The notes under the pieces: generated by a model
What the model was told of the DNA's origin: nothing
Seen by the model: only the letters and a program-made list of their open reading frames with translations
Database searches by the model: none
Shown here: in pieces, positions 17,510-37,216 of the stretch
How positions within the stretch are numbered: the stretch's first letter is position 1
How the letters are laid out: the number at the start of each line of letters is the position of its first letter
Assembly: GCA_963662265.2 (NCBI GenBank)
Contig: CAXXHA010000011.1
Span: forward strand, 64,001 to 128,000
Direction of reading: 5' to 3'
DNA from: Spirochaetia bacterium
Lineage (GTDB): Bacteria; Spirochaetota; Spirochaetia; CADAEX01
DNA: 64,000 nucleotides
Position numbers and translations under genes: made by a program

Positions 17510-17538
17510 TTGACTGCCATATTATAAAAAGGTAGCTT
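17510..17538 (+). promoter_or_regulatory. Sigma70-type promoter immediately before the kinase ATG
   Basis: TTGACT-17bp-TAGCTT; ATG 8 nt downstream with no SD. Confidence 0.5.
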
Positions 17539-17546
17539 AACTCATA

Positions 17547-20154: not shown

Positions 20155-20260
20155 ACATCTCCGGCTCCAGAAAAAAGTTGTTATATTTACTCCTTTGGGT
20201 CAATTGTTGTCACTTTATACCGGTGATAGCATTAACCATGTTTATACAAAGGAGACTAAA

Positions 20261-21271: not shown

Positions 21272-21295
21272 TAAATATAGGGGAACAGGATTTAG

Positions 21296-21812
21296 ATGAA
21301 TGATAAATTTTTAAGAAACATTGAAAAGATTAATTATATTCTTGAAAAGGTTTCTGTTGTATTAATGCTATTCCTGCTTTTTCTTACTTTTGCTAATGTC
21401 GTGGGGCGGTATGTATTCAGCCGCTCCATATTCTTTGCCGATGAAATGGCCAGGTTTATATTTGTCTGGATTGTATTTCTGGGCATAGCAAAAATTGTAA
21501 AAGATAAAAGACAGGTTGCTGTAACATTGTTAAGCGACAGGTTGTCAGGTACAGCTTCTGGTTTCATACTTGAAAGTTTTATTGCAGTATGCGGACTGGT
21601 TTTTTTTAATCATTGTTTTTGTAGGGGGGATAATACTTTCCAGGACAATGATGTTCTACAGCAGCGCAGCGCTTACAATTCCCATGGGGATTGTATATCT
21701 GGCCATACCTCTGGGATCAGGGCTTACTATTGTTTTTCATATTCTTAATTATATTGAGTTTGTTCTCAATCACATCGAAAAACAGAAATCTGTAAAACCG
21801 GAGGTCATGTAA
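21296..21812 (+). CDS. dctQ: TRAP small permease DctQ, frameshift at T8 run 21600-21607
   Basis: NVVGRYVF, DEMARFIFVWIVFLG, then SAALTIPMGIVYLAIPLG in a second frame. Confidence 0.85.
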
Positions 21813-23091
21813 TGACATATTTTATATTTTTCGGAATTCTTCTCGGTTTTATATTTCTGGGAGTCCCGATAGCATATGCGCTCGGGCTTTCAACAGTATA
21901 TCTGCTTATAGCGGAACTTGAAGTGCCTCTGGTTCTGATTGCCCAGAACATGTTTTCCGCAACCAATTCCTATGAATTCCTGGCAATACCTTTTTTTCAT
22001 GCTGGCTGGAGCCTTTATGTCGCACGGCGGGGTTACGAAAAATTTGATTAATTTTTCGCAATCACTTGTAGGTCACTACAGGGGAGGCCTGGCGCAGGTT
22101 GTAGCAGTTTCAGGAATATTTTTCGGCGCAATATCAGGGTCTGCAGCAGCAGTAACAGCTGCTATCGGCGCTATAATGATTGATGTAATGGAAAAGAAGG
22201 GGTATTCAAGACCATTTACAGCTGCTGTTGTTGCGGCGGGAGGAAATGGTCGGTATTGTAATACCACCAAGCATTACACTTGTTGTTTACGGTGTAATAG
22301 CAGGGGTTTCAATCGGCGACCTTTTTCTCGGGGGATTCGGACCCGGAGTAATGTACGGCCTTTCCATGCTTGCATTAAGTTATTTTATATGCCGCAAGAA
22401 CGGCTGGGGCGGAGAAGGATCTTTCAGCTGGAAAAATGTAGGCAAGAGCTTTGTGGGAAGTTTCTGGGCCCTGTTAATGCCTGTAATTATCCTGGGCGGT
22501 ATATACGGAGGGATTTTTACCCCGACAGAAGCAGCCGCAGTTGCTTCAATATATGCGCTGTTTGTAGGTTTCTTCATATACAAGGAACTGAAAATAAAGG
22601 ATCTTCCCAAAATCGTTGCTCAGGCTATATACGGGACAGTTGTAATAATGTTTATTGTTGCTGCAGCAAAAGTATTCGGGTATGCAATAACTTCTGCCCA
22701 GATACCGCATAAGCTGGGGATGTTTATAACAACAGTAGCTCCAAACAAATATGTTTTCCTGATATTTGTAAATGTGATTCTACTTATGCTTGGGACACTG
22801 GTTAATCCGTCTGCTGCTGTAGTAATACTCACACCAATTCTTTACCCTGTTGCAATGGAATTCGGCATAGATCCTGTTTTCTTCGGTGTTCTTATGATCT
22901 GTAACCTTGCAATTGGTAATATTACACCGCCTGTAGGACTTGACCTTTTTGTTGTAAGCGCGGTAACAAAACTGAGTATTGATAAAATTGCAAAGGCAAT
23001 TTATCCGTATATCGGGATACTTGTCATGCAGGTATTTGTCTTTACTTTCTTTCCTCAGATAATAACATTCCTACCGAATTTATTTAAATAA
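21812..23091 (+). CDS. dctM: TRAP large permease DctM, two frameshifts (~21995, ~22243)
   Basis: GVPIAYALG, LAIPFF, FFGAISGSAAA, IPPSI, GIFTPTEAAA and ITPPVGL across three ORFs. Confidence 0.9.
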
Positions 23092-23102: not shown

Positions 23103-23137
23103 GGGTTTTCCTGTTAAGGGAGAACCCTTTGTTTTTT
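23103..23137 (+). terminator. Rho-independent terminator
   Basis: gggttttcc/ggagaaccc stem plus T tract after dctM. Confidence 0.65.
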
Positions 23138-23828: not shown

Positions 23829-25109
23829 ATGAAGTCTGACAAGATAAAAAAGTGGAAGGACGAGATGACTTTTCATCTGGAGAATGAGCTTCTTCCATTC
23901 TGGAAGGAAAGATGCCTTGATGCAGATAACGGGGGATATATTACTCAGTTTGACACAGACGGTAATGATACAGGTTGTGACGAAAAATCCCTTCTGGCGC
24001 ATATGAGGACTGTATATTCTCTTTCCCTTGCCCACAAATACGGTTTTGATAAAGACAGTGTATGCCTGAACCTTGCAAGACAGGGTGTTTATCATGCTGT
24101 CAGAAACTACTGGGACCATGAGTACGGCGGCTTTTACTGGCTTTTCAACAGGAAGAACGAGGTTGTTATAGACAAGAAGATTATATACGGTCTCAGTTTT
24201 GCAATATATGCTCTTTCCACATTCACAACTGTTTCAGGTGATAAAACAGGTATTGAATATGCACAGAAATGTTTCGACCTTCTCCAGATACATTGTTCAG
24301 ATACATTTGACGGCGGTTACTGGGAAATGTTTCACCGTGACTGGACTCTGTGCAGCCCCGGAAGCGGCGGGGGAGACCGCAAGACCCTTGATGTGCATAT
24401 GCATCTGATGGAGGCTTACACAGCACTTTATGCATGCAGCAAAAAGGAGCTCCACCGGAGGAAGCTTAATGAAATCATTGATATCCTGATTAAAAGAATA
24501 ATGCACCCTGATTTCGGAGGGGGAATCCCCCAGTTTTTCAAAGACTGGACTGTAGCCCCCCAGATCAAGTTTGATATTATCTGGGGATGGGACAGGTTTA
24601 CAGGGGAGAAGCAGGAAAAGGAAAATGTATTTGACAATACATCATACGGGCACAATGTTGAGTTTTTCTGGCTTCTTGTCGAGGCATTAAGGGTAATGGA
24701 TGATGATCTTCATAAATATGATGATCTTTTCGGAAAAATACTCTCTACAGCTGTAAATACAGGAATAGACAGAGAATTCGGAGGCGTATATGTCGAAGGT
24801 TCTCATGACGGTAAGCTGGTTTATGACAGAGGCAAGGAATTCTGGCAGCAGGCTGAATTCCTTACCGGAATGCTTGATGCATACCTTTTATACAATGATG
24901 AAAAATACCTTGATGCATATGAAAATGTCCATGATTTTGTGATGAAGCATATGATTAAACATGAAGTGGGCGAGTGGTGGCCTCTTCTGACACGGGAGGG
25001 GGAACCTGTCTGGACACACATGAGCCATTCCTGGAAGGTAAACTACCATACAATCAGGGCTGCTGTTTTAACAGTAGACAGGCTGGAGAAAATCCTTAAA
25101 AAACAATGA
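23829..25109 (+). CDS. AGE family (cellobiose 2-epimerase-like) epimerase/isomerase
   Basis: WDHEYGGFYW, HMHLMEAY, SYGHNVE, WQQAE and WKVNYHTIR motifs of the (alpha/alpha)6 AGE superfamily. Confidence 0.88.
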   Translation: MKSDKIKKWKDEMTFHLENELLPFWKERCLDADNGGYITQFDTDGNDTGCDEKSLLAHMRTVYSLSLAHKYGFDKDSVCLNLARQGVYHAVRNYWDHEYGGFYWLFNRKNEVVIDKKIIYGLSFAIYALSTFTTVSGDKTGIEYAQKCFDLLQIHCSDTFDGGYWEMFHRDWTLCSPGSGGGDRKTLDVHMHLMEAYTALYACSKKELHRRKLNEIIDILIKRIMHPDFGGGIPQFFKDWTVAPQIKFDIIWGWDRFTGEKQEKENVFDNTSYGHNVEFFWLLVEALRVMDDDLHKYDDLFGKILSTAVNTGIDREFGGVYVEGSHDGKLVYDRGKEFWQQAEFLTGMLDAYLLYNDEKYLDAYENVHDFVMKHMIKHEVGEWWPLLTREGEPVWTHMSHSWKVNYHTIRAAVLTVDRLEKILKKQ

Positions 25110-25159: not shown

Positions 25160-26173
25160 CTATAAAAGGGGGCAGGATTTTCTTATTATAAGCTCAGGTT
25201 CAATAATAATATTTGAGGGTTTTTCCTCTTTATCCTTTATCTGCTTGAGAAGTTCCGCTGTCGCAATTTCGCCTAGTCTGTATTTAGGCTGGTGTATTGT
25301 TGTCAGCGGAATTCTGTACCTTTCTGAGAAGTATATATCATCATAACCAAGGACTGCCACTTTATCAGGGACTGCTATTCCCGAGTCAAGAAGACCGTCG
25401 ATGAGTCCGAATGCTGCAAAGTCGTTTAACGCGAAAATACCGCATTTGTGAGATATCTTTTTAAAATAATCAGCATGTTCTATTGCAAAGCTGTAGCCGT
25501 CCTCCTGCCTGTTTATGCCGGTGAAAAGTTTTACAATCCTGTTTTCCCCTTTGTGCCGGTCAGCTTCTCTGTAGAATCCCTCGACCCTGTCATCTGCGGT
25601 CTGGTGTTCAAAGCCTTTCAGGCACATGATTTCTCTGTAATTGTTTTCAAAAAGCAACTTTGTCCCGATTTCACCCCCCTTTATGTTGTCGGAAGTGACA
25701 ATTGAATGGCTGTTGCCGCTGCTTCTGTAATTCATCAGCACTACAGGGGTACTGCTTTTTTTCAGCATATCAAAGGCAGGAGTTTCTGTATCAATAGGGG
25801 TAATCAGAAGGCCGTCTATATGGTTTAGCAGCAGGTTGTTGACTATTTCCTGCTCCTTTTCCCTCTGCCAGTTTGAACTGGTCAGAAACATTATAAATCC
25901 GTTTTTATGAAGCTCCGATTCAATTCCCCTTGCTATTTCCGTGAAAAAGGGATTTGAGAGATCTTCGATTACTACACCTATGATGTTTGAGCTTTTTCTG
26001 GTAAGCGCCCTTGCCAGGTTGCTCGGCTGATAATCATTTTCCTCTATGATTTTCAGGATTTTCTGCCTGGTTGTTTCATTGACCTTGTCGGAATTGTTCA
26101 GTACGCGGGAAACTGTAGCCTTGGAAACGCCGGCTATTTCAGAGATATCAAGTATTGTAAGTTTTCTGTTCAT
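25160..26173 (-). CDS. LacI family transcriptional regulator
   Basis: TILDISEIAGVSKATVSRVLN HTH; SNPFF, ND..AFG, GYDDI and LTTIHQP motifs. Confidence 0.95.
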   Translation of the reverse strand: MNRKLTILDISEIAGVSKATVSRVLNNSDKVNETTRQKILKIIEENDYQPSNLARALTRKSSNIIGVVIEDLSNPFFTEIARGIESELHKNGFIMFLTSSNWQREKEQEIVNNLLLNHIDGLLITPIDTETPAFDMLKKSSTPVVLMNYRSSGNSHSIVTSDNIKGGEIGTKLLFENNYREIMCLKGFEHQTADDRVEGFYREADRHKGENRIVKLFTGINRQEDGYSFAIEHADYFKKISHKCGIFALNDFAAFGLIDGLLDSGIAVPDKVAVLGYDDIYFSERYRIPLTTIHQPKYRLGEIATAELLKQIKDKEEKPSNIIIEPELIIRKSCPLL

Positions 26174-26174
26174 T

Positions 26175-27335
26175 TCAGTCTGTCTGCAGTTTTGTCCATT
26201 TTTCTCCGGAACTGCTGTTTTTAAGAATTGCCTCTATGAAAGCAAGTCCTGTAATACCCTGATTAGCATCAGGATAATCATATCCCGGCGCCGCTGCTTT
26301 GTCTGAGCCTGTTTTAACTGACCTGATAGTCTTAAAACCGCTTCTGTAGATATTGGCAAAGGCGCAGATCAGACCTTCCGGATGTCCTCCCGGCAGGTTG
26401 GATGCTTTCTGCGCTTCATCGCAGAGAGCAGCAGATCCTTTCCTGTAAACAGTTGATGTTCCGTCTGTATTCATTTTTTCAAGTACTTCAGGGGATTCCT
26501 GGTCCCAGAAAAGCCCCCCTTCTGTCCCGTAGATTCTTATTCTGAGTGCATTCCCCTCTCCGGAAGAGACCTGGGATGCATGCAGAATACCTCTTGCATT
26601 GCCACAATAGTGTATCAGTACAGATCCGGTATCATCAAGCGGATTTTCAGGAATATCCGCATTAAGGTCTGCGCATACTTCCTCTGGAACAAGGCCTGTT
26701 ACAGTCTGTACCAGGTTCAGTGCATGAATACCTACATCCATCATTGTACATGACGGTCCTGATATATCGGGATTGAGGTGCCATGTCTGAAAAATGTCAG
26801 GATCTTCCAGAAGTGGAGAAAGCCAACCCTGGGTATATTCAACAACAATTCTTATTATCCTTCCAATCTGTCCATCATTGACAATGTGGCGGGCCTGTTT
26901 AATCATGGGGTAGCCTGTGTAGCCGTGGGTAAGCGCGAAAAGCCTGTTCTTGTTTTCCGCGATATTCCTGATTTCCCTACACTGATCCAGGGAAATGCCC
27001 ATCGGTTTATCTGAAAATACATGAATACCTGCATTAAGAAATGCAGTGCTGATTTCATAATGTGATGAATTTGGAGATGCAACTATCACAAAATCAATCC
27101 TTTCATCTTCAGGGAGCGTTAGCTCATGTTTAATCATTGCCTTGTAATCAGTATATGATCGGTCAGGTTTTATCCCGAGTTCCTTACCCCTTATTATGCT
27201 CTTTTCAGGATCCCTTGAAAACACTCCTGATATAATTTCAGCTTCCCTGTCAAATGAGGAAGCAGTCATATGAACAAATCCTATGAATGATGTTTTACCG
27301 GCACCTATGATTCCGCCTTTGAGTTTTTTATCCAT
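26175..27335 (-). CDS. Gfo/Idh/MocA family oxidoreductase
   Basis: GIIGAG..SFIG.VH, SPNSSH, SDKP, YTGYPM, YTQGWL, DVGIHA and GHPEG motifs. Confidence 0.92.
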   Translation of the reverse strand: MDKKLKGGIIGAGKTSFIGFVHMTASSFDREAEIISGVFSRDPEKSIIRGKELGIKPDRSYTDYKAMIKHELTLPEDERIDFVIVASPNSSHYEISTAFLNAGIHVFSDKPMGISLDQCREIRNIAENKNRLFALTHGYTGYPMIKQARHIVNDGQIGRIIRIVVEYTQGWLSPLLEDPDIFQTWHLNPDISGPSCTMMDVGIHALNLVQTVTGLVPEEVCADLNADIPENPLDDTGSVLIHYCGNARGILHASQVSSGEGNALRIRIYGTEGGLFWDQESPEVLEKMNTDGTSTVYRKGSAALCDEAQKASNLPGGHPEGLICAFANIYRSGFKTIRSVKTGSDKAAAPGYDYPDANQGITGLAFIEAILKNSSSGEKWTKLQTD

Positions 27336-27410
27336 TTTGTCCCTCCATGATCTGATTCTTTTTGGAATTTCTCATTAGGTAAGCATATTCCTTTTCTGAT
27401 ACTGATATTT

Positions 27411-28469
27411 TCAGGTAATACCGAGAATTCTCCTGTTTGTATTTTCATCTGCAGCTCCACCTGCAAAGTCATCAAAAGCCCTGTCTGCAGTTTCTATTAT
27501 CATCGATTCTATAAAAGGTGCCCCCTCTCGTGCCCCCTGTTCTGCGCTTTTGATACAGCATTCCCATTCAAGTACTGCCCATGAACTGTATCCGCACTCA
27601 GTAAGAGTTGAAAACACTTTCCTGAAATCCACCTGGCCGTCTCCCAGGCTTCTGAACCTTCCTGCTCTCTGTATCCAGGGTGAATAACTTCCGTATACAC
27701 CGCTCCTTCCCGAAGGATTGAATTCAGCATCCTTCACATGGAATGCCTTTATATGGGGAGCATATATTCTGATGAATTCAATATAATCAAGGCACTGAAG
27801 AACAAAGTGGGACGGATCATAGAGTATTTTAATCCTCGGGTGGTTGTTTGAAGCTTCAAGGAACTGTTCAAAGCATAAACCGTCATGAAGATCTTCCCCG
27901 GGATGAAGTTCAAATGCAATATCAATACCGTATTCATCTGCTGTATCAAGCACAGGTTTCCATAATCTGTAAAGCTCTTTGTACCCCCGGAATACAAGAC
28001 CTTCTGGTCTCTGGGGCCATGGATAGACAAGATGCCACATTAAAGCGCCTGAAAAAGAGGGCAGTACCTTGAGTCCCAGGTTTGCTGATGCTTTTATCGA
28101 TGCCTTCATCTTCCGCACAGCCCACTGCTGCCTTGCAGAAGGGTTGTTTCTGAATTCTTTTTCTGTGAAAACATCGAAAAGCTCATCATAAGCAGGATTA
28201 ACCGCAATAAGCTGCCCGAACAGGTGGGTTGCAAGTTCTGTAATTTCAAGACCGCTGCATTGCTCTTTTATCTCATCGCAGTAGTCTTTCGATTCTGCAG
28301 CCTTGTCAATATCAATAATATGTTTTTCATTGGCTGGTATCTGTACTCCCCTGTAGCCAAGACTTTTTGCCCATCCAGTAATATCCCTGAGAGTGTTGAA
28401 TGGCTTTTCATCTGTTAAAAACTGTGCCAGAAAAATTGCAGGCCCTTTAATTTTCTCCATTTTTTCCAT
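27411..28469 (-). CDS. Sugar phosphate isomerase/epimerase (xylose isomerase-like TIM barrel)
   Basis: KGPAIFLAQF, FELHPGEDLHDG, YDPSHF, FHVKDAE, FRSLGDG and VLEWE motifs. Confidence 0.9.
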   Translation of the reverse strand: MEKMEKIKGPAIFLAQFLTDEKPFNTLRDITGWAKSLGYRGVQIPANEKHIIDIDKAAESKDYCDEIKEQCSGLEITELATHLFGQLIAVNPAYDELFDVFTEKEFRNNPSARQQWAVRKMKASIKASANLGLKVLPSFSGALMWHLVYPWPQRPEGLVFRGYKELYRLWKPVLDTADEYGIDIAFELHPGEDLHDGLCFEQFLEASNNHPRIKILYDPSHFVLQCLDYIEFIRIYAPHIKAFHVKDAEFNPSGRSGVYGSYSPWIQRAGRFRSLGDGQVDFRKVFSTLTECGYSSWAVLEWECCIKSAEQGAREGAPFIESMIIETADRAFDDFAGGAADENTNRRILGIT

Positions 28470-28527
28470 CCTTATATTAAATCATCGTGTACCGGGAGAA
28501 TTGAGTCGTAAAAAACATTGATGAGTT

Positions 28528-28547
28528 TATTGTAACCGGTTACAATA
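28528..28547. promoter_or_regulatory. LacI-type operator (perfect 20-bp palindrome)
   Basis: TATTGTAACCGGTTACAATA in the divergent intergenic region; central CG typical of LacI sites; identical core at 32457. Confidence 0.85.
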
Positions 28548-28616
28548 TATTTTAGCACAGTTCAGGTTTTGTTCAAGTATTTTGTGAAGATGCCAACATG
28601 ACAGAAGGACAGGGAA

Positions 28617-29582
28617 TTGAGAAAATATATTATAGGGATAGATATCGGGGGGACTAAAACAGCGGTTGTACTTGGAGACCCAACTCCTTCCATATATGAG
28701 CGTATCTGTTTTCCGACAGATACACAGGCAGGTCCGGAGAATACTCTCTCTAAAATATTCGATGCTGTATCAACGATGCTTGATAAAACAGGTAAAGACA
28801 ATGTCTGTTCAATCGGCATCAGCTGCGGAGGCCCACTTGACAGTAAAAAGGGGATAATTCTTTCTCCTCCAAACCTTCCCGGCTGGGATTGTATTCCTGT
28901 AAAGGAAATACTTGAGGAAAAGTTTAAAATACCTTCTTTTCTACAGAATGATGCTGATGCATGCGCCCTTGCCGAGTGGAGATGGGGTGCAGGAAGGGGA
29001 TGTCGCAACATGATATTCCTGACATTCGGCACAGGTCTGGGTGCAGGACTCATACTCAACAAACAGCTTTACAGCGGTACAAATGATATGGCAGGCGAGG
29101 CAGGGCATATAAGGCTTGAAGAAAAAGGACCTGTCGGATACGGGAAAGCAGGTTCATTTGAAGGGTTCTGCAGCGGGAGCGGAATATCACAGCTTGCATC
29201 AGAAATTATTGAAAAGAGGGAAGCTGAAAACTGCATGACCCGGTTCTGCAGGGAATTCAGGGGAAAAACAATAACAGCCAGGGATGTGTGCAGTGCATCG
29301 GATTCAGGCGATGAAGCAGCAATTGAGATTCTTGATATAAGCGGGAGATACCTGGGAAAGGGGCTTTCTGTGCTTATCGATATACTGAATCCAGAAAGGA
29401 TTGTCATCGGCAGTATATTTTCAAGATGCATGAAGCATCTTCTTCCCGCAGCTGAAGCTGTAATAAGGGAAGAGGCTTTAATTAATTCATCAGAAGTCTG
29501 CTCAATTCTTCCTGCAGCCCTCGGGGAGCAGATTGGTGATCTCGGCAGTATATGCGCGGGGGAAAGATTTTTTAAGCAGTAG
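28617..29582 (+). CDS. ROK family sugar kinase
   Basis: GIDIGGTK, GISCGGPLD, QNDADACALAE, TFGTGLGAG and AGEAGH motifs. Confidence 0.92.
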   Translation: MRKYIIGIDIGGTKTAVVLGDPTPSIYERICFPTDTQAGPENTLSKIFDAVSTMLDKTGKDNVCSIGISCGGPLDSKKGIILSPPNLPGWDCIPVKEILEEKFKIPSFLQNDADACALAEWRWGAGRGCRNMIFLTFGTGLGAGLILNKQLYSGTNDMAGEAGHIRLEEKGPVGYGKAGSFEGFCSGSGISQLASEIIEKREAENCMTRFCREFRGKTITARDVCSASDSGDEAAIEILDISGRYLGKGLSVLIDILNPERIVIGSIFSRCMKHLLPAAEAVIREEALINSSEVCSILPAALGEQIGDLGSICAGERFFKQ

Positions 29583-29591
29583 AGGTTATAT

Positions 29592-30230
29592 ATGGATGAA
29601 ATAAACAGACATATCGACAGCCTGTTATCAAGGTACAGCTGCCTGTCAGTCTGCAGATCAGATATGGAAAAGGCATATTGTATGATGAAGGTAAACTTTG
29701 AAAACGGAAGAAAGCTTATTATTTGCGGAAACGGGGGCAGCGCTTCTGATTCATCCCACATAGCAGGCGAGCTTCTGAAAGGGTTTCTTAAAAAACGGGG
29801 ACTTCCTGCTTCCGAGAAGATGAAACTGATTGATACTGATGCTGAAAGAGGAAATTACCTGGCAGAAAATCTCCAGGGTTCGCTTCCCGCAATTGCCTTA
29901 CCTTCAAATACATCTTTACTAACGGCAGTGCTAAACGATATGGATGGGAGGCTTGTATATGCCCAGCAGGTAAGAGGCTATGGTAATAAAGGTGATATTC
30001 TTATGTGTATAAGCACTTCAGGAAATGCTGAAAATGTGATAAATGCAGCAGTAACAGCAGCAGCCTCAGGACTTGAAATAATAGGACTTACAGGGGAAAG
30101 CGGGGGAGAGCTTTTAAAATTCTGCAATGCCTGCATAAGGGTACCTGCTTCATCAACAGCAGAAGTTCAGGAACTGCATTTACCTGTCTATCATACACTC
30201 TGCGCAATGATAGAGGAAACTTTTTTCTGA
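29592..30230 (+). CDS. gmhA: SIS-domain phosphoheptose isomerase (GmhA-like)
   Basis: CGNGGSASDSSHIAGEL, ISTSGNAENV, GLTG..GG and QELH..VYH.LC motifs. Confidence 0.8.
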   Translation: MDEINRHIDSLLSRYSCLSVCRSDMEKAYCMMKVNFENGRKLIICGNGGSASDSSHIAGELLKGFLKKRGLPASEKMKLIDTDAERGNYLAENLQGSLPAIALPSNTSLLTAVLNDMDGRLVYAQQVRGYGNKGDILMCISTSGNAENVINAAVTAAASGLEIIGLTGESGGELLKFCNACIRVPASSTAEVQELHLPVYHTLCAMIEETFF

Positions 30231-30452
30231 TAGAATTCCAGATGTACTGTTTTTGATCCGGGGGCAATGATTCAATTTTCTATCTACAGGCCAGTGAAAA
30301 TATTTTTTAGAGTTTTATGAAAAGTCTTTAAAGATGGATCATTAAAACCGGAATTGATTCTAATCATGATGCTTCATGGATGCAAGGCTTACGGGATCTG
30401 TTCGTTTCAGTATTTTGTATCAGATCCTGATCTGGAAAAGAAGGGTAGGTTT

Positions 30453-32339
30453 TTATCTTTTCAAGATCAGGTCAAGTAAAATATCCTGCTGGGAATAGTC
30501 GGGAATTATAAAATCAGCTCCCGCTTTTATCAGTCTTTCCCTTTTTTCCCTGTTGAGACTGTATCGCCTGACCTCATCGCTTGCAATACCTACAGATATT
30601 CCCCCTGCATTTACTGTCTGAGCTATCTCAACCGGACCGTCTCCGAATGTAATAAGGTTCTCCGCATTCTTACTTCCTACAGTTTTTATTATCCTGCTGA
30701 TTACTGCTTTTTTTGGATCATCTGCAATATCATCTGACGCTCCGAAAATACCTCCGTTAAAGAGATCATTATACCCGAGCAGTTCTGCCTCTTTCTTTAC
30801 ATCTTCTTCATCAGTTCCGCTTGCAAGATATAAAATTACCCCTTTTTCCCTCAGTTTTTCAAGGAAATCCACAGCTCCCTTGATTGTTACATCCTGTATA
30901 TCCAGTTCCATGTTGCCCAGTTTTTCAATTCTCCTGTTTACAAGCTGCATCAGCCTTTTGTTGTAAATTTTCTTGTATTCATGTATATCCAGAATCATAT
31001 TCTCCGGAACAAGTCTGAATTCCCTGATCAGATTAGTAAGACCATCCATCTGAATAAGAGTCATAAGTCCTGTTGTCTTGTCAATAAAATCACTTACCCT
31101 GGCCTGTATTATCCTATAAAGGGAAGAATCAATGTCAGCTTCTCCGATTATTGATTCTGTCATCATCGGATGCATAACCTCTTCCCATCCCTGTCTGAGT
31201 GTAGAAATTGTACCATCATGATCAAAGAGTGCGAATTTTATATTCCTGTCAAAGTCAGATCTCTTTATTATCTCAATTTCTGAGTTCTTAAGGTATTCTG
31301 CCTTTGAATGGTTCAGGGCCAGTTCCGGATTGTAAATATAAACTGCCTCATTTTCCATTTTCTGTATTTCTTCAGGAGATGCAGTCCCTGTCGTGTGAAG
31401 TTTTTTTACAGTCACAGCAGCAGCAAGATTTCCTATAACTGCAGCATCATGGGAAGGAAACCCTGAGCCTGTAGCTGCGGCAATTGCAGCAAGCGCTGTG
31501 TCTCCGGCACCTACTGTATCAATCTCAGACAGGATCTGTATTCCCGGTATTTCCATGCAGCCTGTACTGCTGCATACAATAATTCCCCGTTCCCCCCTTG
31601 TGAGGAAAACAGGTTTCTCCCATATATTGTAAAGCTCCTTTGCAGCCTTCAGATCTTTGTCCCAGCTTTCCTCAAGTTTTATCCCGTTTTTTTCAAGTAC
31701 TTTGAAAGCTTCTTCCCTGTTGATTTTTCTGCTTGTTCCCCTGAAATCCTGCGAAAAATCCCTGCTGTCTGTTATGCACAGAGTCTCAGGGGATCTGTTC
31801 AGCAATTTAACCAGCTGTTTTCTGAAATAGTCTGAATGGATCCCTGAAATCAGCTGCTGGTTGATGATGAGAATATCTGTATCAGGAAGAGCTGTTTTAA
31901 GATTTGATAACAATCTGTCAGCTGTGGTATTTTCAAGAAGGTTGAAATTACCGAAATCAATCCTGTTCCCTTCGGTTCCGTTTTTCAGTATTTTGGTATA
32001 GACATTTGTAATCCAGTTTTTCTCCTGTATAACCATTCCCGATATATCAATCTGTTTCTTTTCAAGTTTTTTTAAAAGCTCTCTTCCGAACATGTCTGAT
32101 CCGGTAACCCCGAATGCAGATATTTTTTCTACACCCAGAACTGCAAGGTTTACTGCAACATTTCCGGCTCCTCCAGGCGAAGAGCAGAAATTTCTGACAG
32201 GCAGGGTTGCAAGACCTGTTTCTATTGAAATTTCACCGGATTCAGGATCTGTTGCGATATAGAAATCCAGAGTAAAATCTCCGATAACTGCGGCTCTGCA
32301 GTCCGGTATTTTTGAAAGTATCTGTTTCACTGAATTCAT
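30453..32339 (-). CDS. Fusion of RfaE/HldE-like PfkB kinase and HAD hydrolase
   Basis: N-terminal VIGDFTLD, PGGAGNVAVNL, TRGERG and DTVGAGDT; C-terminal FDHDGTIS, LASGT and FGDGPVE. Confidence 0.85.
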   Translation of the reverse strand: MNSVKQILSKIPDCRAAVIGDFTLDFYIATDPESGEISIETGLATLPVRNFCSSPGGAGNVAVNLAVLGVEKISAFGVTGSDMFGRELLKKLEKKQIDISGMVIQEKNWITNVYTKILKNGTEGNRIDFGNFNLLENTTADRLLSNLKTALPDTDILIINQQLISGIHSDYFRKQLVKLLNRSPETLCITDSRDFSQDFRGTSRKINREEAFKVLEKNGIKLEESWDKDLKAAKELYNIWEKPVFLTRGERGIIVCSSTGCMEIPGIQILSEIDTVGAGDTALAAIAAATGSGFPSHDAAVIGNLAAAVTVKKLHTTGTASPEEIQKMENEAVYIYNPELALNHSKAEYLKNSEIEIIKRSDFDRNIKFALFDHDGTISTLRQGWEEVMHPMMTESIIGEADIDSSLYRIIQARVSDFIDKTTGLMTLIQMDGLTNLIREFRLVPENMILDIHEYKKIYNKRLMQLVNRRIEKLGNMELDIQDVTIKGAVDFLEKLREKGVILYLASGTDEEDVKKEAELLGYNDLFNGGIFGASDDIADDPKKAVISRIIKTVGSKNAENLITFGDGPVEIAQTVNAGGISVGIASDEVRRYSLNREKRERLIKAGADFIIPDYSQQDILLDLILKR

Positions 32340-32414
32340 AATCTGATACTCCCGGATATTAAAATATTGTTTATCAGGATGGGTTACAGCTCTTTTATAA
32401 CCCTAAATTAAAAT

Positions 32415-32443
32415 TTGACTATTAAAAACACTCGTGGTAGAAT
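32415..32443 (+). promoter_or_regulatory. Sigma70-type promoter of the sugar ABC operon
   Basis: TTGACT-17bp-TAGAAT with TG extension. Confidence 0.7.
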
Positions 32444-32456
32444 TTGAAACAATATA

Positions 32457-32474
32457 ATTGTAACCGGTTACAAT
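32457..32474. promoter_or_regulatory. LacI-type operator (perfect 18-bp palindrome)
   Basis: ATTGTAACCGGTTACAAT just downstream of the -10 box, the usual repressor position. Confidence 0.85.
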
Positions 32475-32507
32475 GAATAAGTAAAGTAGTCCTTACTGGA
32501 GAAAGTT

Positions 32508-34010
32508 TTGAGTAATGAAGATGTAATTTTACGGGCCTCAAATATCTGCAAAAGCTTTTCTACTGTCGAAGTACTTCACAAAATCTCATTTGAAATTGAA
32601 AGAGGAGAGATACTCGGGATTATCGGGGAAAACGGCGCCGGTAAATCTACAATGATGAAAATACTTGCAGGGATCCATACACCTACATCGGGAGAGATTT
32701 TTTTTGAAGGGGAGAAAGTTCTGATCAACAAACCCCTTGATGCGAAAAAAATCGGGATAAGTATAATTCCCCAGGAATTCAACCTGATCAATGATCTGTC
32801 TGTTTATGATAATATTTTTCTCGGTTCAGAAATTCTCCTGTCCAACAGGCTGCTGAACAAGGAAGAGATGAAAAAGAGAACCAGGTCTCTTCTGCATGAT
32901 CTGCAGGTGGAGATTTCCCCGGATGAGAAGATTGAAAACCTGAGTGCTGCCGAAAAGCAGATGGTAGAGATCAGCAAGGCTCTTGCTTTCAGGTCCAAGG
33001 TGCTGATAATGGATGAACCTACTTCTGTTCTTACCCAGCATGAGATAGATATTCTTTTCGACAAGATGAGGAAACTGAAGGAGTCAGGTCTCACAATCAT
33101 ATATATTTCTCATAAACTGAAAGAAGTAAAGGCAATCTGCGACCGTGTTCTTGTATTGAGAGATGGTGATTTTGTACTTGAAAGCAAAGTAGGAACTATT
33201 TCACCTGAAGAGATGGCAAAAAGCATGGTCGGACGGGAACTTTCCCAGGTATTTCCGGAAAAGAATACTCCTGAAGATAAAGTTGTTTTTGAGGTTAAAG
33301 ATCTTTCTATTCCCGGCCTCCTTGAAAATATCAGTTTTACACTTAAGAAAGGCGAGATTCTCGGCCTCGGCGGCCTTGTAGGGGCCGGCAGGACAGAGGT
33401 TGCTGAAGCAATAATGGGCTTAAGGGGAATTTCATCAGGCGAAATAACTGTTAGCGGCAGTAAAGTAAATATCAGAAATCCGCAGGATGCTGTCGGTGTC
33501 GGAATCGGATATCTTTCAGAAGACAGGCAGGGGAGCGGCATAATCACTTCTTTCAGCGTTGCGCATAACATGACACTTGTTTCCCTGAAAAAATACAGTG
33601 ACAATTTCATCCAGTGGATTGACAAGATAAGGGAAAAAGAATCATCAGAGAAATTCAGGAATCTTTTTAATCTCAAGACTCCGTCTCTTGATACAGAGCT
33701 TGAACACTTAAGCGGTGGTAACCAGCAGAAGGTATCATTTTCTAAAACCCTTGATACACAGCCTGAAATCCTGATAGTTGATGAACCGACAAGAGGTATT
33801 GATGTTTCTGCAAAACAGGAAATATACCAGTTTATTAATTCACTTGTTCAGAAAGGGCTGTCATGCATAATAATTTCCTCTGAAATTGAAGAACTTATCG
33901 GTATGTGCAACAGGGTTGTAGTTATGCATGAGGGAAAGATCCCCGGGATACTGGAGGAGGACAGTATTAATGAGGAAGAAATTATGTTGTATGCAACAGG
34001 TTTAAAGTAA
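32508..34010 (+). CDS. Monosaccharide (CUT2) ABC transporter ATP-binding protein, RbsA-like
   Basis: GENGAGKST, IMDEPT, SEDR, LSGGNQQKV and DEPTRGIDV; two ABC domains. Confidence 0.95.
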   Translation: MSNEDVILRASNICKSFSTVEVLHKISFEIERGEILGIIGENGAGKSTMMKILAGIHTPTSGEIFFEGEKVLINKPLDAKKIGISIIPQEFNLINDLSVYDNIFLGSEILLSNRLLNKEEMKKRTRSLLHDLQVEISPDEKIENLSAAEKQMVEISKALAFRSKVLIMDEPTSVLTQHEIDILFDKMRKLKESGLTIIYISHKLKEVKAICDRVLVLRDGDFVLESKVGTISPEEMAKSMVGRELSQVFPEKNTPEDKVVFEVKDLSIPGLLENISFTLKKGEILGLGGLVGAGRTEVAEAIMGLRGISSGEITVSGSKVNIRNPQDAVGVGIGYLSEDRQGSGIITSFSVAHNMTLVSLKKYSDNFIQWIDKIREKESSEKFRNLFNLKTPSLDTELEHLSGGNQQKVSFSKTLDTQPEILIVDEPTRGIDVSAKQEIYQFINSLVQKGLSCIIISSEIEELIGMCNRVVVMHEGKIPGILEEDSINEEEIMLYATGLK

Positions 34011-34017
34011 GGAGGAA

Positions 34018-34992
34018 TTGAAAATGGTTAAAGGTATGGAAATTGTTAAAAAAATCAGCTGGCAGCGTTATGCCTCCTTTTTTGCCCTTGTTTTTCTCTT
34101 TATTCTGTCGTCATTTCTGAGTCCCTATTTTTTGAAACCTCAGAACATCATCAATATAATGAGACAGATATCATATACCGGTATAATTGCACTTGGAATG
34201 ACATTTGTAATAATTACAGCAGGTATCGACCTTTCAGTAGGTTCTGTTGTTGCATTTACCGCTGCAGTGGTTGTGCTGTCGATGAACGCAATGCTCAGGG
34301 TCATTGAAAGTGAAGCTCTTGTTCTTATTATAGGCATCCCCATAGGACTTGTTGTAGGCGGAGCTGCGGGAGCGTTTAACGGACTTATGATAACTAAAGG
34401 CAGGATTGCCCCATTTATAGTAACCCTCGGTTCTATGTCTATTTTCCGTTCACTGTCACTTTATATCGGTGATGCGGGGGAAATACAGTCACATAACACT
34501 CTTTACGGAAAACTTGGAATGGGTTCTTTTCTTTTCATTCCTGTTCCTGTCTGGGTTATTCTTATCCTTGCGGCAGTTCTTCATCTTGTTCTCAATAACA
34601 CAAGATTCGGCAGATACCTGTGCGCGATAGGGTCTAACCAGAAAGTAGCAATGTTTTCTGCTATCAATGTCGACAGGATAAAATTCTATACATATACCCT
34701 GATTGGTATGCTTGTTGGTATAACTGCGATTCTTCTGGCATCCAGGTTTAATGCTGTAAGTACATCAAACATGGGCCTCACTTACGAGCTTGATGCTATT
34801 GCCTCTGTTATAATAGGCGGCACTGCCATGAGCGGAGGACGGGGCACAATCTGGGGTACTGTCTTCGGCGCTGTAATCCTTGGAATAATAAACAACATGA
34901 TGAATATGGTGGGGGTATCACCCTATCTACAGGGAACAGTAAAAGGTCTTGTAATAATCATAGCTGTATATTTTCAGAAACAGAAACAGTAG
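34018..34992 (+). CDS. Monosaccharide ABC transporter permease, RbsC-like
   Basis: GMTFVIITAGIDLSVGS, PFIVTLG, TRFGR..AIGSN and YELDAIASVIIGG motifs. Confidence 0.95.
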   Translation: MKMVKGMEIVKKISWQRYASFFALVFLFILSSFLSPYFLKPQNIINIMRQISYTGIIALGMTFVIITAGIDLSVGSVVAFTAAVVVLSMNAMLRVIESEALVLIIGIPIGLVVGGAAGAFNGLMITKGRIAPFIVTLGSMSIFRSLSLYIGDAGEIQSHNTLYGKLGMGSFLFIPVPVWVILILAAVLHLVLNNTRFGRYLCAIGSNQKVAMFSAINVDRIKFYTYTLIGMLVGITAILLASRFNAVSTSNMGLTYELDAIASVIIGGTAMSGGRGTIWGTVFGAVILGIINNMMNMVGVSPYLQGTVKGLVIIIAVYFQKQKQ

Positions 34993-35013
34993 TTTTTCAG
35001 GGAGTAATATCAT

Positions 35014-36036
35014 ATGGCAGATAAAAAAACTGTTATTGCATGTCCTTTTCCCCAGAAGCTTGAAACTGTATTTTCCGAAAAAAAACTGAAACAGCTTAAA
35101 GAACTGACTGATTTTAGATTTCTGGGAAATGGCGAGGTTGAGTACAGTAAACTTGATGAAAATATTTCAGATGCATTTGCCCTTATTGGACAGATGGATC
35201 TGCCCAGGGAACGGCTTGAAAGAGCTCCCAATCTTAAAGTTATTTTCAACGTCGAGGGAAATTTCTACCAGAATATAGATTATGATTACTGTTTCAGAAA
35301 CAACATATATGTTCTCAACTGCGGTGTAGTATATTCAAAACCTGTTGCAGAAATGGGACTTTCATTTGCGATAGATCTTGCAAGGGGAATCACACGGGAG
35401 GACAGAAGGTTCAGAAACAATGAGGAAACATATCTCGGTGACGGGTGCAGGGATTCTGTTCTGCTGTCGGGAAGCGATATAGGCTTTATCGGGTTCGGCA
35501 ACCTGGGACGAGCGCTTCTTAAGCTCCTGAAGCCGTTTAACTGCCGGATAAAGATATATGATCCATGGATTCCTGAAAATGTAATTATGGAAAACAACTG
35601 TATTCCCTCTTCCCTTGACGAAGTCTTGAGTTCTTCCAGGTTTATATTTGTAATTGCCGGAATTACAAAGGAAAACCAGGGGTTTCTGAACCGGGAAAAA
35701 CTTTCTCTTATTAAAAAAGATTCTTTTTTTATACTGTTAAGCAGGGCGGCAGCTGTTGATTTTGATGTTCTTGTCGATTTTGTTTCTGAAGGGAGGTTTA
35801 CTGCAGCAGTTGATGTTTTTCCCGAAGAACCCATGCCTCAGAACCACAGGGTGCGTAAACTTGAAAATATGATTCTTTCCCCTCACCGTGCAGGGGGAAT
35901 ACCGCAGGCTTTTGATTTAATCGGAGAGATGGTTGTCGATGACCTTTCACTTCTTTTACAAGGGCTTGCACCGGTCAGAATGCAGAAAGCTTTATTTGAA
36001 ACTGTAAAAAGCATGATCAGCAAACCTGCAGGTTGA
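35014..36036 (+). CDS. D-isomer specific 2-hydroxyacid dehydrogenase
   Basis: VAEM, GFIGFGNLG, YDP, SRA, DVFPEEP and SPHRAG motifs. Confidence 0.9.
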   Translation: MADKKTVIACPFPQKLETVFSEKKLKQLKELTDFRFLGNGEVEYSKLDENISDAFALIGQMDLPRERLERAPNLKVIFNVEGNFYQNIDYDYCFRNNIYVLNCGVVYSKPVAEMGLSFAIDLARGITREDRRFRNNEETYLGDGCRDSVLLSGSDIGFIGFGNLGRALLKLLKPFNCRIKIYDPWIPENVIMENNCIPSSLDEVLSSSRFIFVIAGITKENQGFLNREKLSLIKKDSFFILLSRAAAVDFDVLVDFVSEGRFTAAVDVFPEEPMPQNHRVRKLENMILSPHRAGGIPQAFDLIGEMVVDDLSLLLQGLAPVRMQKALFETVKSMISKPAG

Positions 36037-36110
36037 TTATTTGCATTTCATGTATCCGGAATTTAAAAAGTAAACGGATGCTTTATGAATATTTCATAGG
36101 AGGATTCATT

Positions 36111-37160
36111 ATGAAGAAAAATCTTTTACTTCTGCTTGTAGTTATACTGGCAGTATCATTCTTTGCATTTACTGGATGTGCGGAAAAAGAAGCTGCAGCT
36201 CCTGCTGCTCCTGAAGTATCTGCCTCAGATGCACAGCCTGTTGCAAAGAATTATGTTGGAAAGATTGGTATTTCTCTGCCGACAGCTACACACGGTTATA
36301 TGGGACGTGTTAACTGGTGGGTTAAAAAGGCAGTTAAGGACTGGAAAGCATCAAATCCCGGTCTTGAATTCCTTGTTGTAACAGCTGACAGTGTTACAAA
36401 ACAGGCTTCAGATATTGAAGACCTGATGATCAAGGAAATTGATGCAATTGTTGTATTTCCTTTTGACTCCTCTCTGACATCTGTTATTGAAAAAGCCTAT
36501 AACTCCGGTATCTATACTGTAGTTCTTGACAGAGGCGCTACAAGACCGGTTTATGATGTTTATATTTCAAATGATGATGAAGGTTATACACGTGAAGGTA
36601 CAAAGTGGATTGCACAGCAGCTCGGCGGTAAGGGAAAACTTGCTGTTATAGAAGGTATTCCGTGCGAAATCAACACAATAAGAACAGAAACAATTAAAAA
36701 GACAGCTGCACAGTATGGCCTTGAAGTTATTGATTCACAGCCTGGAATGTGGAACCCTGAAAAAGCACTTGCTGTAATGGAAAATTATCTTCAGAAATAT
36801 CCGCAGATTGATGCAGTCTATACTGCTGATGATGATATGATGAAGGGTGCTCTTCAGGCTTACAAGGAATCAGGAAGAAGCGATATCAAGGTATTTCTGG
36901 GCGGCGGTGCTGACAAGGAAATACTCAAGCAGATTATTGATGACAGCAACCCTCTTGTCAAAGCAGATGTAACATATCCGCCTGACTGTATTGCAACTGC
37001 AGTAGGTCTTGCCGTCCTGGGATATAACAAACAGTCATTTGAAGGTTTCTACCAGAAAAAACTGCCTGTAAGAATAATTCTTTCTGCAGAACTTATTACA
37101 AATGAAAATGCAAAACAGTATTATGAAGCTGATGAGCTTAATTTTGAAAAAGTTAACTAG
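36111..37160 (+). CDS. Sugar ABC transporter substrate-binding lipoprotein (RbsB-like)
   Basis: AGGAGG RBS; lipobox FTGC; Q.SDIEDL, VVLDR, W...KA and DDDM motifs. Confidence 0.9.
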   Translation: MKKNLLLLLVVILAVSFFAFTGCAEKEAAAPAAPEVSASDAQPVAKNYVGKIGISLPTATHGYMGRVNWWVKKAVKDWKASNPGLEFLVVTADSVTKQASDIEDLMIKEIDAIVVFPFDSSLTSVIEKAYNSGIYTVVLDRGATRPVYDVYISNDDEGYTREGTKWIAQQLGGKGKLAVIEGIPCEINTIRTETIKKTAAQYGLEVIDSQPGMWNPEKALAVMENYLQKYPQIDAVYTADDDMMKGALQAYKESGRSDIKVFLGGGADKEILKQIIDDSNPLVKADVTYPPDCIATAVGLAVLGYNKQSFEGFYQKKLPVRIILSAELITNENAKQYYEADELNFEKVN

Positions 37161-37180
37161 CTGAAATCTGTTAGGTAATC

Positions 37181-37216
37181 GGCCGGGTAATTCATATGAT
37201 TTATCCGGCTTTTTTT
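37181..37216 (+). terminator. Rho-independent terminator
   Basis: ggccgggtaa...ttatccggct followed by a T run. Confidence 0.75.

Follow-up and report, generated by a model that had tools for sequence, protein, structure and literature searches.

A putative LacI-repressed, import-linked sugar regulon with heptose-type and keto-sugar enzymes in a Spirochaetia genome

The window analyzed here is a 64,000-nucleotide stretch of a Spirochaetia bacterium genome (GenBank assembly GCA_963662265.2, 3.77 Mb and 90.6% complete; contig CAXXHA010000011.1, positions 64,001 to 128,000), and its subject is a compact gene cluster that appears to be a sugar regulon under a LacI-family repressor. Open reading frames (ORFs) and family profile searches placed ten genes in four transcription units that diverge from two intergenic regions (28469/28617 and 32339/32508). 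On the minus strand, the first region leads into genes for a xylose isomerase-like TIM barrel protein (27411-28469; Pfam AP_endonuc_2), a GFO/IDH/MocA NAD(P) oxidoreductase (26175-27335; Pfam GFO_IDH_MocA plus C-terminal domains), and, last in the unit, the LacI-family repressor (25160-26173; Pfam LacI helix-turn-helix plus Peripla_BP_1/3). Its plus-strand partner unit encodes a ROK-family sugar kinase (28617-29582; Pfam ROK, 186.8 bits) and a Zn-type SIS_2/GmhA-like aldose-ketose isomerase (29592-30230; TIGR00441, 137.2 bits). From the second region, the minus strand carries a single gene for a 628-residue fusion of an HldE-like PfkB kinase to a HAD domain (30453-32339; Pfam PfkB plus Hydrolase/HAD_2), and the plus strand carries an importer operon of the ATP-binding cassette (ABC) type. 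This operon comprises a duplicated CUT2-type ATPase (32508-34010; two ABC_tran domains), a CUT2 permease (34018-34992; Pfam BPD_transp_2), a D-isomer-specific 2-hydroxyacid dehydrogenase family protein lodged within the operon (35014-36036; Pfam 2-Hacid_dh_C and 2-Hacid_dh), and a lipoprotein solute-binding protein (36111-37160 within the ORF 36033-37160; Pfam Peripla_BP_4). The plus-strand gene for an AGE-superfamily epimerase (23829-25109), just beyond this region, belongs to the same conserved gene set, and the genes for a TRAP transporter, DctP-DctQ-DctM (20195-23091, plus strand), lie upstream of it, with DctP at 20195-21271.

Each divergent region contains one copy of the same operator. 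The 16-nt core TTGTAACCGGTTACAA occurs in exactly two perfect copies in the window, at 28530-28545 (predicted operator 1, between the TIM barrel and ROK units) and at 32458-32473 (predicted operator 2, between the fusion gene and the ABC operon), and both copies are embedded in the 18-nt palindrome ATTGTAACCGGTTACAAT. The chance expectation for the window was 0.01, none of 100 shuffles contained two matches, and the whole assembly holds no other perfect copy. Operator 1 overlaps a promoter-like site (28518-28546), and operator 2 lies just downstream of another (32415-32443). In two congeners, operator 2 is perfect and operator 1 is retained with one mismatch each, and the LacI protein is 78 to 84% identical. 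The LacI helix-turn-helix, a periplasmic-binding-protein-like core, and palindromic operators are found together here, as befits a LacI repressor, which by this prediction probably controls all four units through the two palindromes. No NCBIfam equivalog exceeded its cut-off with this protein, the best being RbsR (220.5 bits versus 382). We looked for a third operator in the window, for example upstream of the AGE or TRAP genes, and found none plausibly placed within three mismatches of a 14-nt core; the sole operator-like site elsewhere, with two mismatches on contig C15, falls within an ORF and was taken as chance. The first-pass annotation of this DNA had described four units read from two divergent promoter regions with the same perfect operator, encoding a CUT2 importer, a ROK kinase, a GmhA-like SIS isomerase, an HldE-type kinase fused to a HAD domain, and two dehydrogenases. 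Both the layout and the family assignments were borne out, the two operator copies being unique in the genome and conserved in the congeners.

Part of this gene set recurs as a cassette far outside the window. Homologues of the fusion number more than 4,000 at E ≤ 0.001 (7,999 candidates scored in a protein collection), and a pattern scan of species-representative genomes returned at least 584 matches, at least 560 of which encode a relative of the fusion. The loci studied were the best 80 from that scan, together with a second set of 80 metagenome loci; many of the contigs are short, so that the family counts per 80 loci are lower bounds. The 80 genome loci come mostly from Bacteroidota, and also from Spirochaetota, Planctomycetota, Verrucomicrobiota, Lentisphaerota, Ignavibacteriota, Chloroflexota, Thermotogota, and Acidobacteriota. 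When all of their ORFs were clustered, the recurrent order was LacI-ROK-SIS-(GH38)-(GH92)-(MFS)-fusion-UNK370-(DUF1080)-AGE-SSF, in which UNK370 is a 370-residue protein without a Pfam hit that belongs to the NCBIfam “GSU2086 family” (NF052581; 328.7 bits versus a cut-off of 250). The GSU2086 family was present at 51 of the 80 loci, SIS at 42, AGE at 30, SSF at 28, ROK at 25, GH92 at 21, GH38 at 20, MFS at 19, LacI at 13, and DUF1080 at 9; GFO genes with twin-arginine translocation (Tat) signals were found at 5. Six N termini per family were sampled, and most of those from GH38, GH92, DUF1080, and the Tat-signal GFO family carry export-type signals, those of GH38 including Tat-type RR motifs. 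The periplasmic GFO(Tat) and DUF1080 genes of some Bacteroidota cassette operons belong to a 3-keto route described in a preprint (10.1101/2024.03.25.586180).

The fusion and the GSU2086-family protein are the most tightly conserved pair of the cassette. In a scan centered on the GSU2086-family gene, the fusion gene lay directly upstream in 35 of the 46 metagenome loci with at least 2 kb of room. Ten such metagenome loci gave no fusion hit, and ten neighboring ORFs from seven of them included no heptose biosynthesis genes; they encode GH3, GH2, MacB/FtsX, topoisomerase, and other unrelated proteins. Among 401 sampled genomes of the window's phylum, the GSU2086 family exceeded its cut-off in 15, and all 6 genomes with the fusion (E ≤ 1e-60) were among those 15; related genomes in this sample do not count as independent. 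Two of the six carriers have the two genes at separate locations, and one of these is the window's own genome (G000), where the GSU2086-family gene is on another contig (G000:C35:115016-116107; locus L086:9505-10617, minus strand).

The window's gene set is syntenic in two congeners at 64 to 96% protein identity, in the blocks TRAP-AGE, LacI-GFO-TIM, ROK-SIS, fusion, and ABC-2-hydroxyacid dehydrogenase-binding protein. In one of them (G010; locus L096, 8886-18665), the GSU2086-family gene is directly downstream of the fusion gene, and the AGE gene is preceded, at a distance of about 45 nt, by a third operator with one mismatch. The regulon of G010, with three operators and with both the GSU2086-family and AGE genes, is a complete cassette as in Bacteroidota. 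Within the order (20 genomes), the fusion gene is confined to the window's genus, where all three species have it and from which it does not extend to any of the other 17 genomes. Elsewhere in the phylum, the cassette has ABC importers beside it in three more lineages. Among these, an independent cluster from another family (L208, genome G030) reads SBP-ABC ATPase-TIM-UNK370-kinase-HAD-GmhA-like-ROK-ROK-TIM-GFO (SBP, solute-binding protein), echoing the composition of the window; its kinase and HAD are separate, lower-identity matches, and its TIM barrel homologues are just 32 to 34% identical to the window's protein.

Genes for the activation and transfer of nucleotide sugars are nearly absent from these neighborhoods. 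Homologues of nucleotidyl- and glycosyltransferases were found at 0 of the 80 genome loci and 1 of the 80 metagenome loci in tblastn searches whose queries, and hence sensitivity, were those of the window genome's own NTP-transferase, cytidylyltransferase-like, and GT4 proteins. In the 90.6%-complete genome itself, neither rfaE_dom_II (the HldC-type domain) nor HldD had a match over its cut-off, and GT9 heptosyltransferase had no match; the NTP_transferase matches are on other contigs only. It had been noted from the first reading that a nucleotidyltransferase, HldD, and heptosyltransferases are missing from the window, which holds for the families tested. The neighborhood search proposed at that time now shows ROK, GmhA-like, and PfkB::HAD genes recurring with importers (SSF, MFS, and ABC) and LacI regulators, with transferases at 1 of 160 loci, and homologous clusters do not consistently include nucleotidyl- or glycosyltransferases. 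Because importers, exported glycosidases, and LacI regulators surround the cassette and transferases are nearly absent, the cluster is import-linked, serving catabolism or salvage, and is separate from nucleotide-heptose and envelope biosynthesis.

The isomerase falls below the curated GmhA cut-offs (TIGR00441, 137.2 versus 209.45 bits; NF010546, 147.4 versus 276), and the 15 solved structures closest to it are without exception GmhA or DiaA. Its residues S50, D53, H56, E60, Q193, and H201 align with S58, D61, H64, E68, Q175, and H183 of Burkholderia pseudomallei GmhA, which are Zn ligands and coupled or catalytic residues (PMC5705639). All six are kept in 38 to 40 of 42 cassette homologues from other phyla, the exceptions being mostly alignment gaps. 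A 26-residue insertion after the E-containing helix sets the protein apart from the compact GmhA architecture of about 190 residues; 39 of the 42 cassette homologues share it, and the genome's canonical GmhA does not. The alignment with GmhA is gap-free over the segment with Q175 and H183, which suggests that pocket length is unchanged. With its active site conserved, the protein may be expected to act as an aldose-ketose isomerase, on a substrate and in a direction that we can only predict. Since the genome encodes a separate canonical GmhA (G000:C28:48193-48651; locus L097:7182-7739) that exceeds the TIGR00441 cut-off at 212.6 bits, the window isomerase is a distinct paralogue. The neighbors of that canonical gene on C28 encode two CotH kinase-like proteins, a beta-helix protein, an SDR epimerase-like protein, and two GT4 glycosyltransferases. 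An assignment of the window's SIS protein as a NagS-type GlcNAc-6-P dehydratase was rejected, as NagS is MurQ-related (PMC12680351) and the best solved relatives of the SIS protein are all GmhA or DiaA. The adjoining ROK kinase reached 182.1 bits against a cut-off of 260 for ROK_glcA_fam, and ROK homologues (about 53% identity) adjoin the cassette isomerase in the 25 loci from other phyla.

In the fusion protein, an HldE-like PfkB kinase domain (residues ~1-345) precedes a capped HAD phosphotransferase domain (~365-628), and this C-terminal domain is not an HldE-type adenylyltransferase (rfaE_dom_II). The kinase domain scores 131.8 bits against an rfaE_dom_I (TIGR02198) cut-off of 345, yet this is its best-scoring kinase model, and the nearest solved kinase is a heptose-7-phosphate kinase (4e84; E = 1.9e-13). 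The GAGD motif (G277-A278-G279-D280), which supplies the anion hole and base and is a hallmark of PfkB kinases, is invariant in 18 aligned homologues. So are the HAD motifs I (DxDGT: D373, D375, G376, and T377) and IV (GDG: G566, D567, and G568). The intact motifs show a working HAD fold, a signature shared by phosphatases and phosphomutases and not diagnostic of GmhB specificity. No GmhB or HAD-IIIA model appeared among the hits of this domain, for which the best model was PhnX-like (34.8 bits versus 218.9), and no solved structure matched better than E = 0.33. The labels GmhA-like and HldE-type thus hold as best models for isomerase and kinase, with both proteins under the curated cut-offs and a HAD partner that is not GmhB-like.

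The TIM barrel protein, labeled an isomerase at first, is closest to a hydratase. It matches the structure 8ro4, “2-hydroxy-3-keto-glucal hydratase,” at E = 9.1e-148 and 495 bits (residues 4-351 to 1-349) and is a close relative and putative hydratase; we take 8ro4 to be AtHYD of Agrobacterium tumefaciens on the basis of PMC10628242. This match ties the regulon to the oxidative 3-keto-glycoside route and supersedes an IolE assignment (51.5 bits; cut-off, 290). For the A. tumefaciens operon, preliminary evidence from its authors assigns hydration of the glucal to AtHYD and reduction of 3-keto-glucose to a Gfo enzyme, the two steps that complete 3-keto-glycoside breakdown (PMC10628242), and the AL and BT enzymes of Alistipes and Bacteroides belong to the same route (preprint 10.1101/2024.03.25.586180). 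The best solved relative of the window's GFO protein (3v5n, 268 bits) has no assigned function. Because it is paired with the hydratase-like TIM barrel, as in the logic of the A. tumefaciens operon, the GFO protein is a candidate keto-sugar reductase or sugar dehydrogenase. Levoglucosan dehydrogenase (83.8 bits versus a cut-off of 650) and inositol dehydrogenase (far under the cut-off) were rejected as identities for it. The best NCBIfam hit of the 2-hydroxyacid dehydrogenase, which is 83 to 89% identical in the congeners, was glyoxylate reductase (121 bits versus 455). Taken together, the TIM barrel, GFO, and 2-hydroxyacid dehydrogenase proteins could form the hydration and reduction half of an oxidative 3-keto-glycoside route, operating in the cytoplasm.

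The importer combines a fused double ATPase, a BPD_transp_2 permease, and a Peripla_BP_4 protein in one operon, which is the composition of a CUT2 system. It reached no cut-off of the substrate-specific equivalogs for ribose, xylose, allose, arabinose, galactose, or autoinducer-2 (AI-2): the ATPase scored about 526 to 528 bits with the RbsA and XylG models, under both cut-offs, and the permease scored 247.7 bits with RbsC (cut-off, 398). From its likely start Met at 36111, the binding protein has a signal peptide followed by the lipobox FTGC; its best solved relative is 4joq (211 bits), for which no ligand is stated.

The AGE protein matches PDB 8h1k, labeled “N-acylglucosamine 2-epimerase,” at E = 4e-170 and 570 bits; we take this structure to be the mannose 2-epimerase of Runella slithyformis. 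AGE homologues (about 59% identity) occur at 31 of the 80 loci of the second set as well as at the 30 genome loci. The TRAP-AGE order is retained in the congener G011, a terminator-like site (23103-23127) follows the TRAP genes, and the pair parallels the AGE-SSF symporter pair of other phyla.

The AlphaFold model of the GSU2086-family protein (pLDDT, 90.3) has remote fold matches only, to deoxyhypusine synthase (DHS), LOR/SDH, and the AgrE/ArgZ C-terminal domain (TM, 0.41 to 0.46). In Geobacter sulfurreducens, GSU2086 lies between hldE (GSU2085) and gmhA (GSU2087), and all three genes have similar Tn-seq defects (PMC5585712). The gene of the window's genome is downstream of a carbamate kinase gene (L086; G000:C35:105500-125400), near genes for a threonine aldolase-like lyase, an aldose 1-epimerase, a PfkB kinase, a Zn-dehydrogenase, and a second CUT2 ABC importer; its surroundings hold no LacI operator like those of the window. 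At another locus of the window's phylum (L206, genome G216, 8179-11365), a 332-residue GSU2086-type protein is encoded ahead of a 160-residue cytidylyltransferase-like protein, a 200-residue GmhA-like protein, and a radical-SAM protein. The setting is suggestive of sugar-nucleotide biosynthesis and recalls the order hldE-GSU2086-gmhA in Geobacter. An obligatory nickel-pincer cofactor for the GSU2086-family protein is not supported, LarC (PF01969) having been found in just three of five genomes with the fusion-GSU2086 pair and not in those of L019 and L049. The window's genome encodes one LarC and four LarA (Lar_N) homologues, on contigs C23, C39, C29, C32, and C3, and the organism probably makes and uses this cofactor independently of the regulon.

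We propose, with somewhat more confidence than doubt, that the cluster is a LacI-repressed, import-linked sugar regulon that joins an importer, a keto-sugar module, and one copy of a sugar-phosphate cassette and that serves catabolism or salvage. The cassette consists here of the ROK kinase, the insertion-bearing GmhA-type isomerase, and the fusion, and its usual partners are the GSU2086-family DHS-fold protein and the AGE epimerase; it probably marks a sugar-phosphate pathway that has not yet been described. In the scheme that we envisage, the repressor sits on the two palindromes until a sugar or sugar phosphate releases it, and the ABC system would import a manno-configured monosaccharide or its 3-keto or glycal form. 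Where needed, the hydratase-like TIM barrel, the GFO protein, and the 2-hydroxyacid dehydrogenase would convert keto or enone forms to the aldose, a step that we include because of the 8ro4 match, the A. tumefaciens operon (PMC10628242), and the AL and BT enzymes (10.1101/2024.03.25.586180). The ROK kinase would then phosphorylate the terminal carbon, and the GmhA-type isomerase would link the aldose phosphate to sedoheptulose-7-P for a C7 sugar or to fructose-6-P for a C6 sugar. The fusion may phosphorylate the beta-anomeric hydroxyl to form a 1,n-bisphosphate and then remove or transfer the terminal phosphate, which would leave a ring-locked sugar-1-phosphate with its phosphate at the beta-anomeric position. 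By analogy with HldE, GmhB, and HldD, the DHS-fold enzyme would act on that sugar-1-phosphate, most plausibly as a hydride-transfer epimerase; for an L,D-heptose this would be a C6 epimerization, making it a nucleotide-free counterpart of HldD. If the HAD domain acted as a mutase rather than a phosphatase, the route would cost no net extra ATP.

A heptose (D,D- or L,D-glycero-manno-heptose) is our leading single candidate for the substrate, though only tentatively, because the cassette enzymes come nearest to those that handle heptoses, because the six GmhA active-site residues are kept, and because GSU2086 lies between hldE and gmhA in Geobacter (PMC5585712). The L206 locus, with its short GSU2086-type gene ahead of cytidylyltransferase-like and GmhA-like genes, is a further link to heptose. 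D-Mannose or a derivative comes close behind, as a possible but less favored candidate. The earlier proposal, in which imported heptose is phosphorylated by the ROK kinase and fed by GmhA acting in reverse into the pentose phosphate pathway, is partly supported: it stands as far as the link to import and the heptose-type enzymes are concerned, and its heptose substrate and simple reverse-GmhA route remain proposals. That route gave no role to the kinase::HAD fusion, which is half of the most conserved pair, and overlooked the 3-keto-sugar chemistry indicated by the GFO and TIM barrel proteins. A more specific version, which we put forward as speculation and consider unlikely to hold in full, is that the cassette is a catabolic pathway for envelope manno-heptoses (L,D- and D,D-) from lipopolysaccharide (LPS) cores, capsules, and S-layer glycans. 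GH38- and GH92-type enzymes or the oxidative 3-keto route would free the heptose, and the ROK kinase would phosphorylate C7. By way of the 1,7-bisphosphate, the fusion would bring the phosphate to the beta-anomeric carbon, the GSU2086-family DHS-fold enzyme would epimerize C6 of the ring-locked heptose-1-phosphate, and the insertion-bearing GmhA would run in reverse to sedoheptulose-7-phosphate.

Several observations weigh against the proposed regulon and its heptose assignment. Homologues of the window's GFO, TIM barrel, ABC ATPase, and solute-binding proteins were each found at 0 of the 80 loci in other phyla (the permease at 1 and the 2-hydroxyacid dehydrogenase at 2), so that the 3-keto module is joined to the cassette in certain lineages only. 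Since the GSU2086-family gene is unlinked in the window's genome and neither it nor the AGE gene has an operator there, the full cassette is not demonstrably co-regulated in this organism. The HAD domain has no detectable relation to GmhB, and a kinase-phosphatase fusion is unusual for catabolism. The isomerase and kinase are well under the GmhA and HldE cut-offs, and the isomerase also has the 26-residue insertion; for these reasons they may act on substrates other than those used by the heptose enzymes. An epimerase role for the DHS-fold protein is suggested by analogy from a remote fold match (TM, ~0.45), the substrates named for the binding protein, kinases, and isomerase are candidates drawn from homology, and the context of alpha-mannosidases and a mannose 2-epimerase-like protein favors a hexose.

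The last point leads to the alternative that the cassette handles D-mannose, or a derivative, set free by alpha-mannosidases, which we regard as possible though not probable. The GmhA reaction is stereochemically the same as phosphomannose isomerization. The ROK protein would then be a manno- or glucokinase, the GmhA-like protein a mannose-6-P/fructose-6-P isomerase, and the AGE protein an enzyme interconverting mannose and glucose, and the fusion and GSU2086-family protein would run a side branch through beta-mannose-1,6-bisphosphate and beta-mannose-1-phosphate. The GH92 and GH38 genes at about a quarter of the cassette loci, whose sampled products have mostly export-type N termini, are consistent with this, as is the strong AGE match to a presumed mannose 2-epimerase. 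ROK-SIS stands where a hexokinase-phosphomannose isomerase pair would be expected, and the window's genome shows only a partial manA match, under the cut-off. However, mannose requires just a kinase and an isomerase, which leaves the fusion and GSU2086-family protein unexplained; the gap-free alignment around Q175 and H183 argues for an unchanged GmhA pocket; and GSU2086 lies within a genuine heptose operon in Geobacter (PMC5585712).

It is rather less likely that the true substrate is a compound of the oxidative glycoside route (a small glycoside, an anhydro-sugar, a 3-keto-hexose, or a 2-hydroxy-3-keto-glycal), with the TIM barrel, GFO, and 2-hydroxyacid dehydrogenase proteins decisive and the ROK-isomerase-fusion set clearing odd epimers that arise from nonstereospecific hydration or reduction. 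The strength of the TIM barrel match to a solved hydratase points this way, as do the single operator common to the TIM/GFO and ROK-SIS genes, the second lineage of the phylum that again joins SBP-ABC-TIM, the cassette, and TIM-GFO, and the DUF1080 and GFO(Tat) genes at 9 and 5 of the 80 Bacteroidota-type loci. Against these stand the low identity of the TIM barrel homologues in that second lineage and the lack of a recognized glycoside 3-dehydrogenase or eliminase in the window. The cassette moreover persists at the 80 loci of other phyla without the window's GFO and TIM barrel genes, so its function is independent of them.

Least likely of all is that the cassette converts sedoheptulose-7-P or imported heptose into an activated form (beta-heptose-1-phosphate and a derivative), for a surface glycan or small molecule and with expression that is merely sugar-regulated: the sequence of isomerase, anomeric kinase, and phosphatase does follow the chemistry of the nucleotide-heptose pathway, Geobacter GSU2086 is in an LPS-related operon with an envelope-type mutant phenotype (PMC5585712), and the short GSU2086-type gene of L206 lies beside cytidylyltransferase-like, GmhA-like, and radical-SAM genes, but 159 of 160 cassette loci lack nucleotidyl- or glycosyltransferase homologues, GT9 matches and HldC-type matches over the cut-off are both missing from the window's genome, a separate canonical GmhA is available for biosynthesis, and the cassette keeps company with importers, periplasmic glycosidases, and LacI repressors.

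The import-linked regulon that we favor shares parts with several known systems. The pathway to ADP-L-glycero-beta-D-manno-heptose consists of GmhA, the HldE kinase domain or HldA, GmhB, the HldC/HldE adenylyltransferase, and HldD. The cassette uses the same three reaction types on homologous scaffolds (Zn-type SIS, PfkB, and HAD superfamily), and in Geobacter the founding member of its partner family, GSU2086, has hldE and gmhA as its neighbors (PMC5585712). It differs from that pathway in that the regulon lacks an adenylyltransferase, HldD, and a heptosyltransferase; the isomerase and kinase are below the cut-offs and the isomerase has the insertion; the HAD domain is capped, unrelated to GmhB, and fused to the kinase; and the genes are under a LacI repressor in the company of importers and glycosidases. 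With the 3-keto-glycoside pathway (GlycDH-AtOGE-AtHYD-Gfo of A. tumefaciens, BT/AL1-4 of Bacteroides/Alistipes, and the levoglucosan lgd genes of B. smithii), the window shares a hydratase-like TIM barrel beside a GFO-family oxidoreductase, and some Bacteroidota cassette operons share DUF1080 and Tat-GFO. Unlike that pathway, the window has no recognized initiating glycoside 3-dehydrogenase or eliminase, and its genes are co-regulated with a kinase-isomerase-kinase::HAD set that the sections consulted of PMC10628242 and 10.1101/2024.03.25.586180 do not mention.

The window's importer operon resembles the ribose, allose, and xylose CUT2 operons in its duplicated ATPase, its BPD_transp_2 and Peripla_BP_4 proteins, and a LacI/RbsR-type repressor with a palindromic operator. 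It differs from them in meeting no specific equivalog cut-off, in catabolic enzymes that are entirely different, and in having a dehydrogenase gene inside the transporter operon. In Bacteroides-type routes for sialic acid and mannan (NanE-NanT-RokA; cellobiose 2-epimerase with a symporter), an AGE-superfamily epimerase is paired with a ROK kinase and a transporter. Here too, the AGE gene adjoins a transporter (SSF in other phyla, TRAP in the window) and occurs with a ROK kinase, whereas there is no lyase or phosphorylase partner and the AGE protein is probably of the mannose 2-epimerase type and travels with a heptose-like cassette.

Gram-negative envelopes are rich in heptoses, and both heptose phosphates and ADP-heptose serve as innate immune signals. 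In the open-access literature, we found no paper by phrase on bacterial heptose catabolism, utilization, degradation, salvage, or recycling, nor a description of the cassette itself, most subscription journals and supplements lying outside the scope of that search. The cassette is widespread, and two of its enzyme types, the kinase::HAD fusion and the GSU2086 DHS-fold family, are without an assigned activity. If envelope-heptose catabolism were its role, it would be the first heptose catabolic route and would give functions to two unstudied enzyme families; if the substrate were mannose, the cassette would still indicate that glycan-degrading anaerobes have a branch of mannose-phosphate metabolism not known before. 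What the window adds is a defined operator/repressor pair, the ABC importer, the connection to a keto-glycal hydratase, an arrangement in which the partner gene is unlinked, and a congener whose complete set is under the same operator. It is also a compact and experimentally convenient version of the system, with a binding protein suited to ligand screening.

Some features of the neighborhoods fall outside these arguments. The DctM gene of the window (21813-23091) is read in at least two overlapping frames, 21939-22712 and 22228-23091, and another start lies near 21813. Its break is near homopolymer runs and reflects either a frameshifted gene or an assembly error; over the second part, the G011 segment shows 97% identity. 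The TRAP-AGE genes are immediately preceded (15617-20125) by a 608-residue ORF combining an HMGL-like aldolase/lyase domain with a dCache sensor domain, a Cache-sensor histidine kinase gene, and a LuxR-type response regulator gene. These genes may regulate the TRAP-AGE unit, or the 608-residue ORF may be a fusion generated by a frameshift. At nine cassette loci, proteins of one ORF cluster (c11, L004-L083), exported, about 410 residues long, and with a marginal GH42-like Pfam match, are encoded in up to four copies per locus beside GH92 and may represent an unclassified glycosidase.

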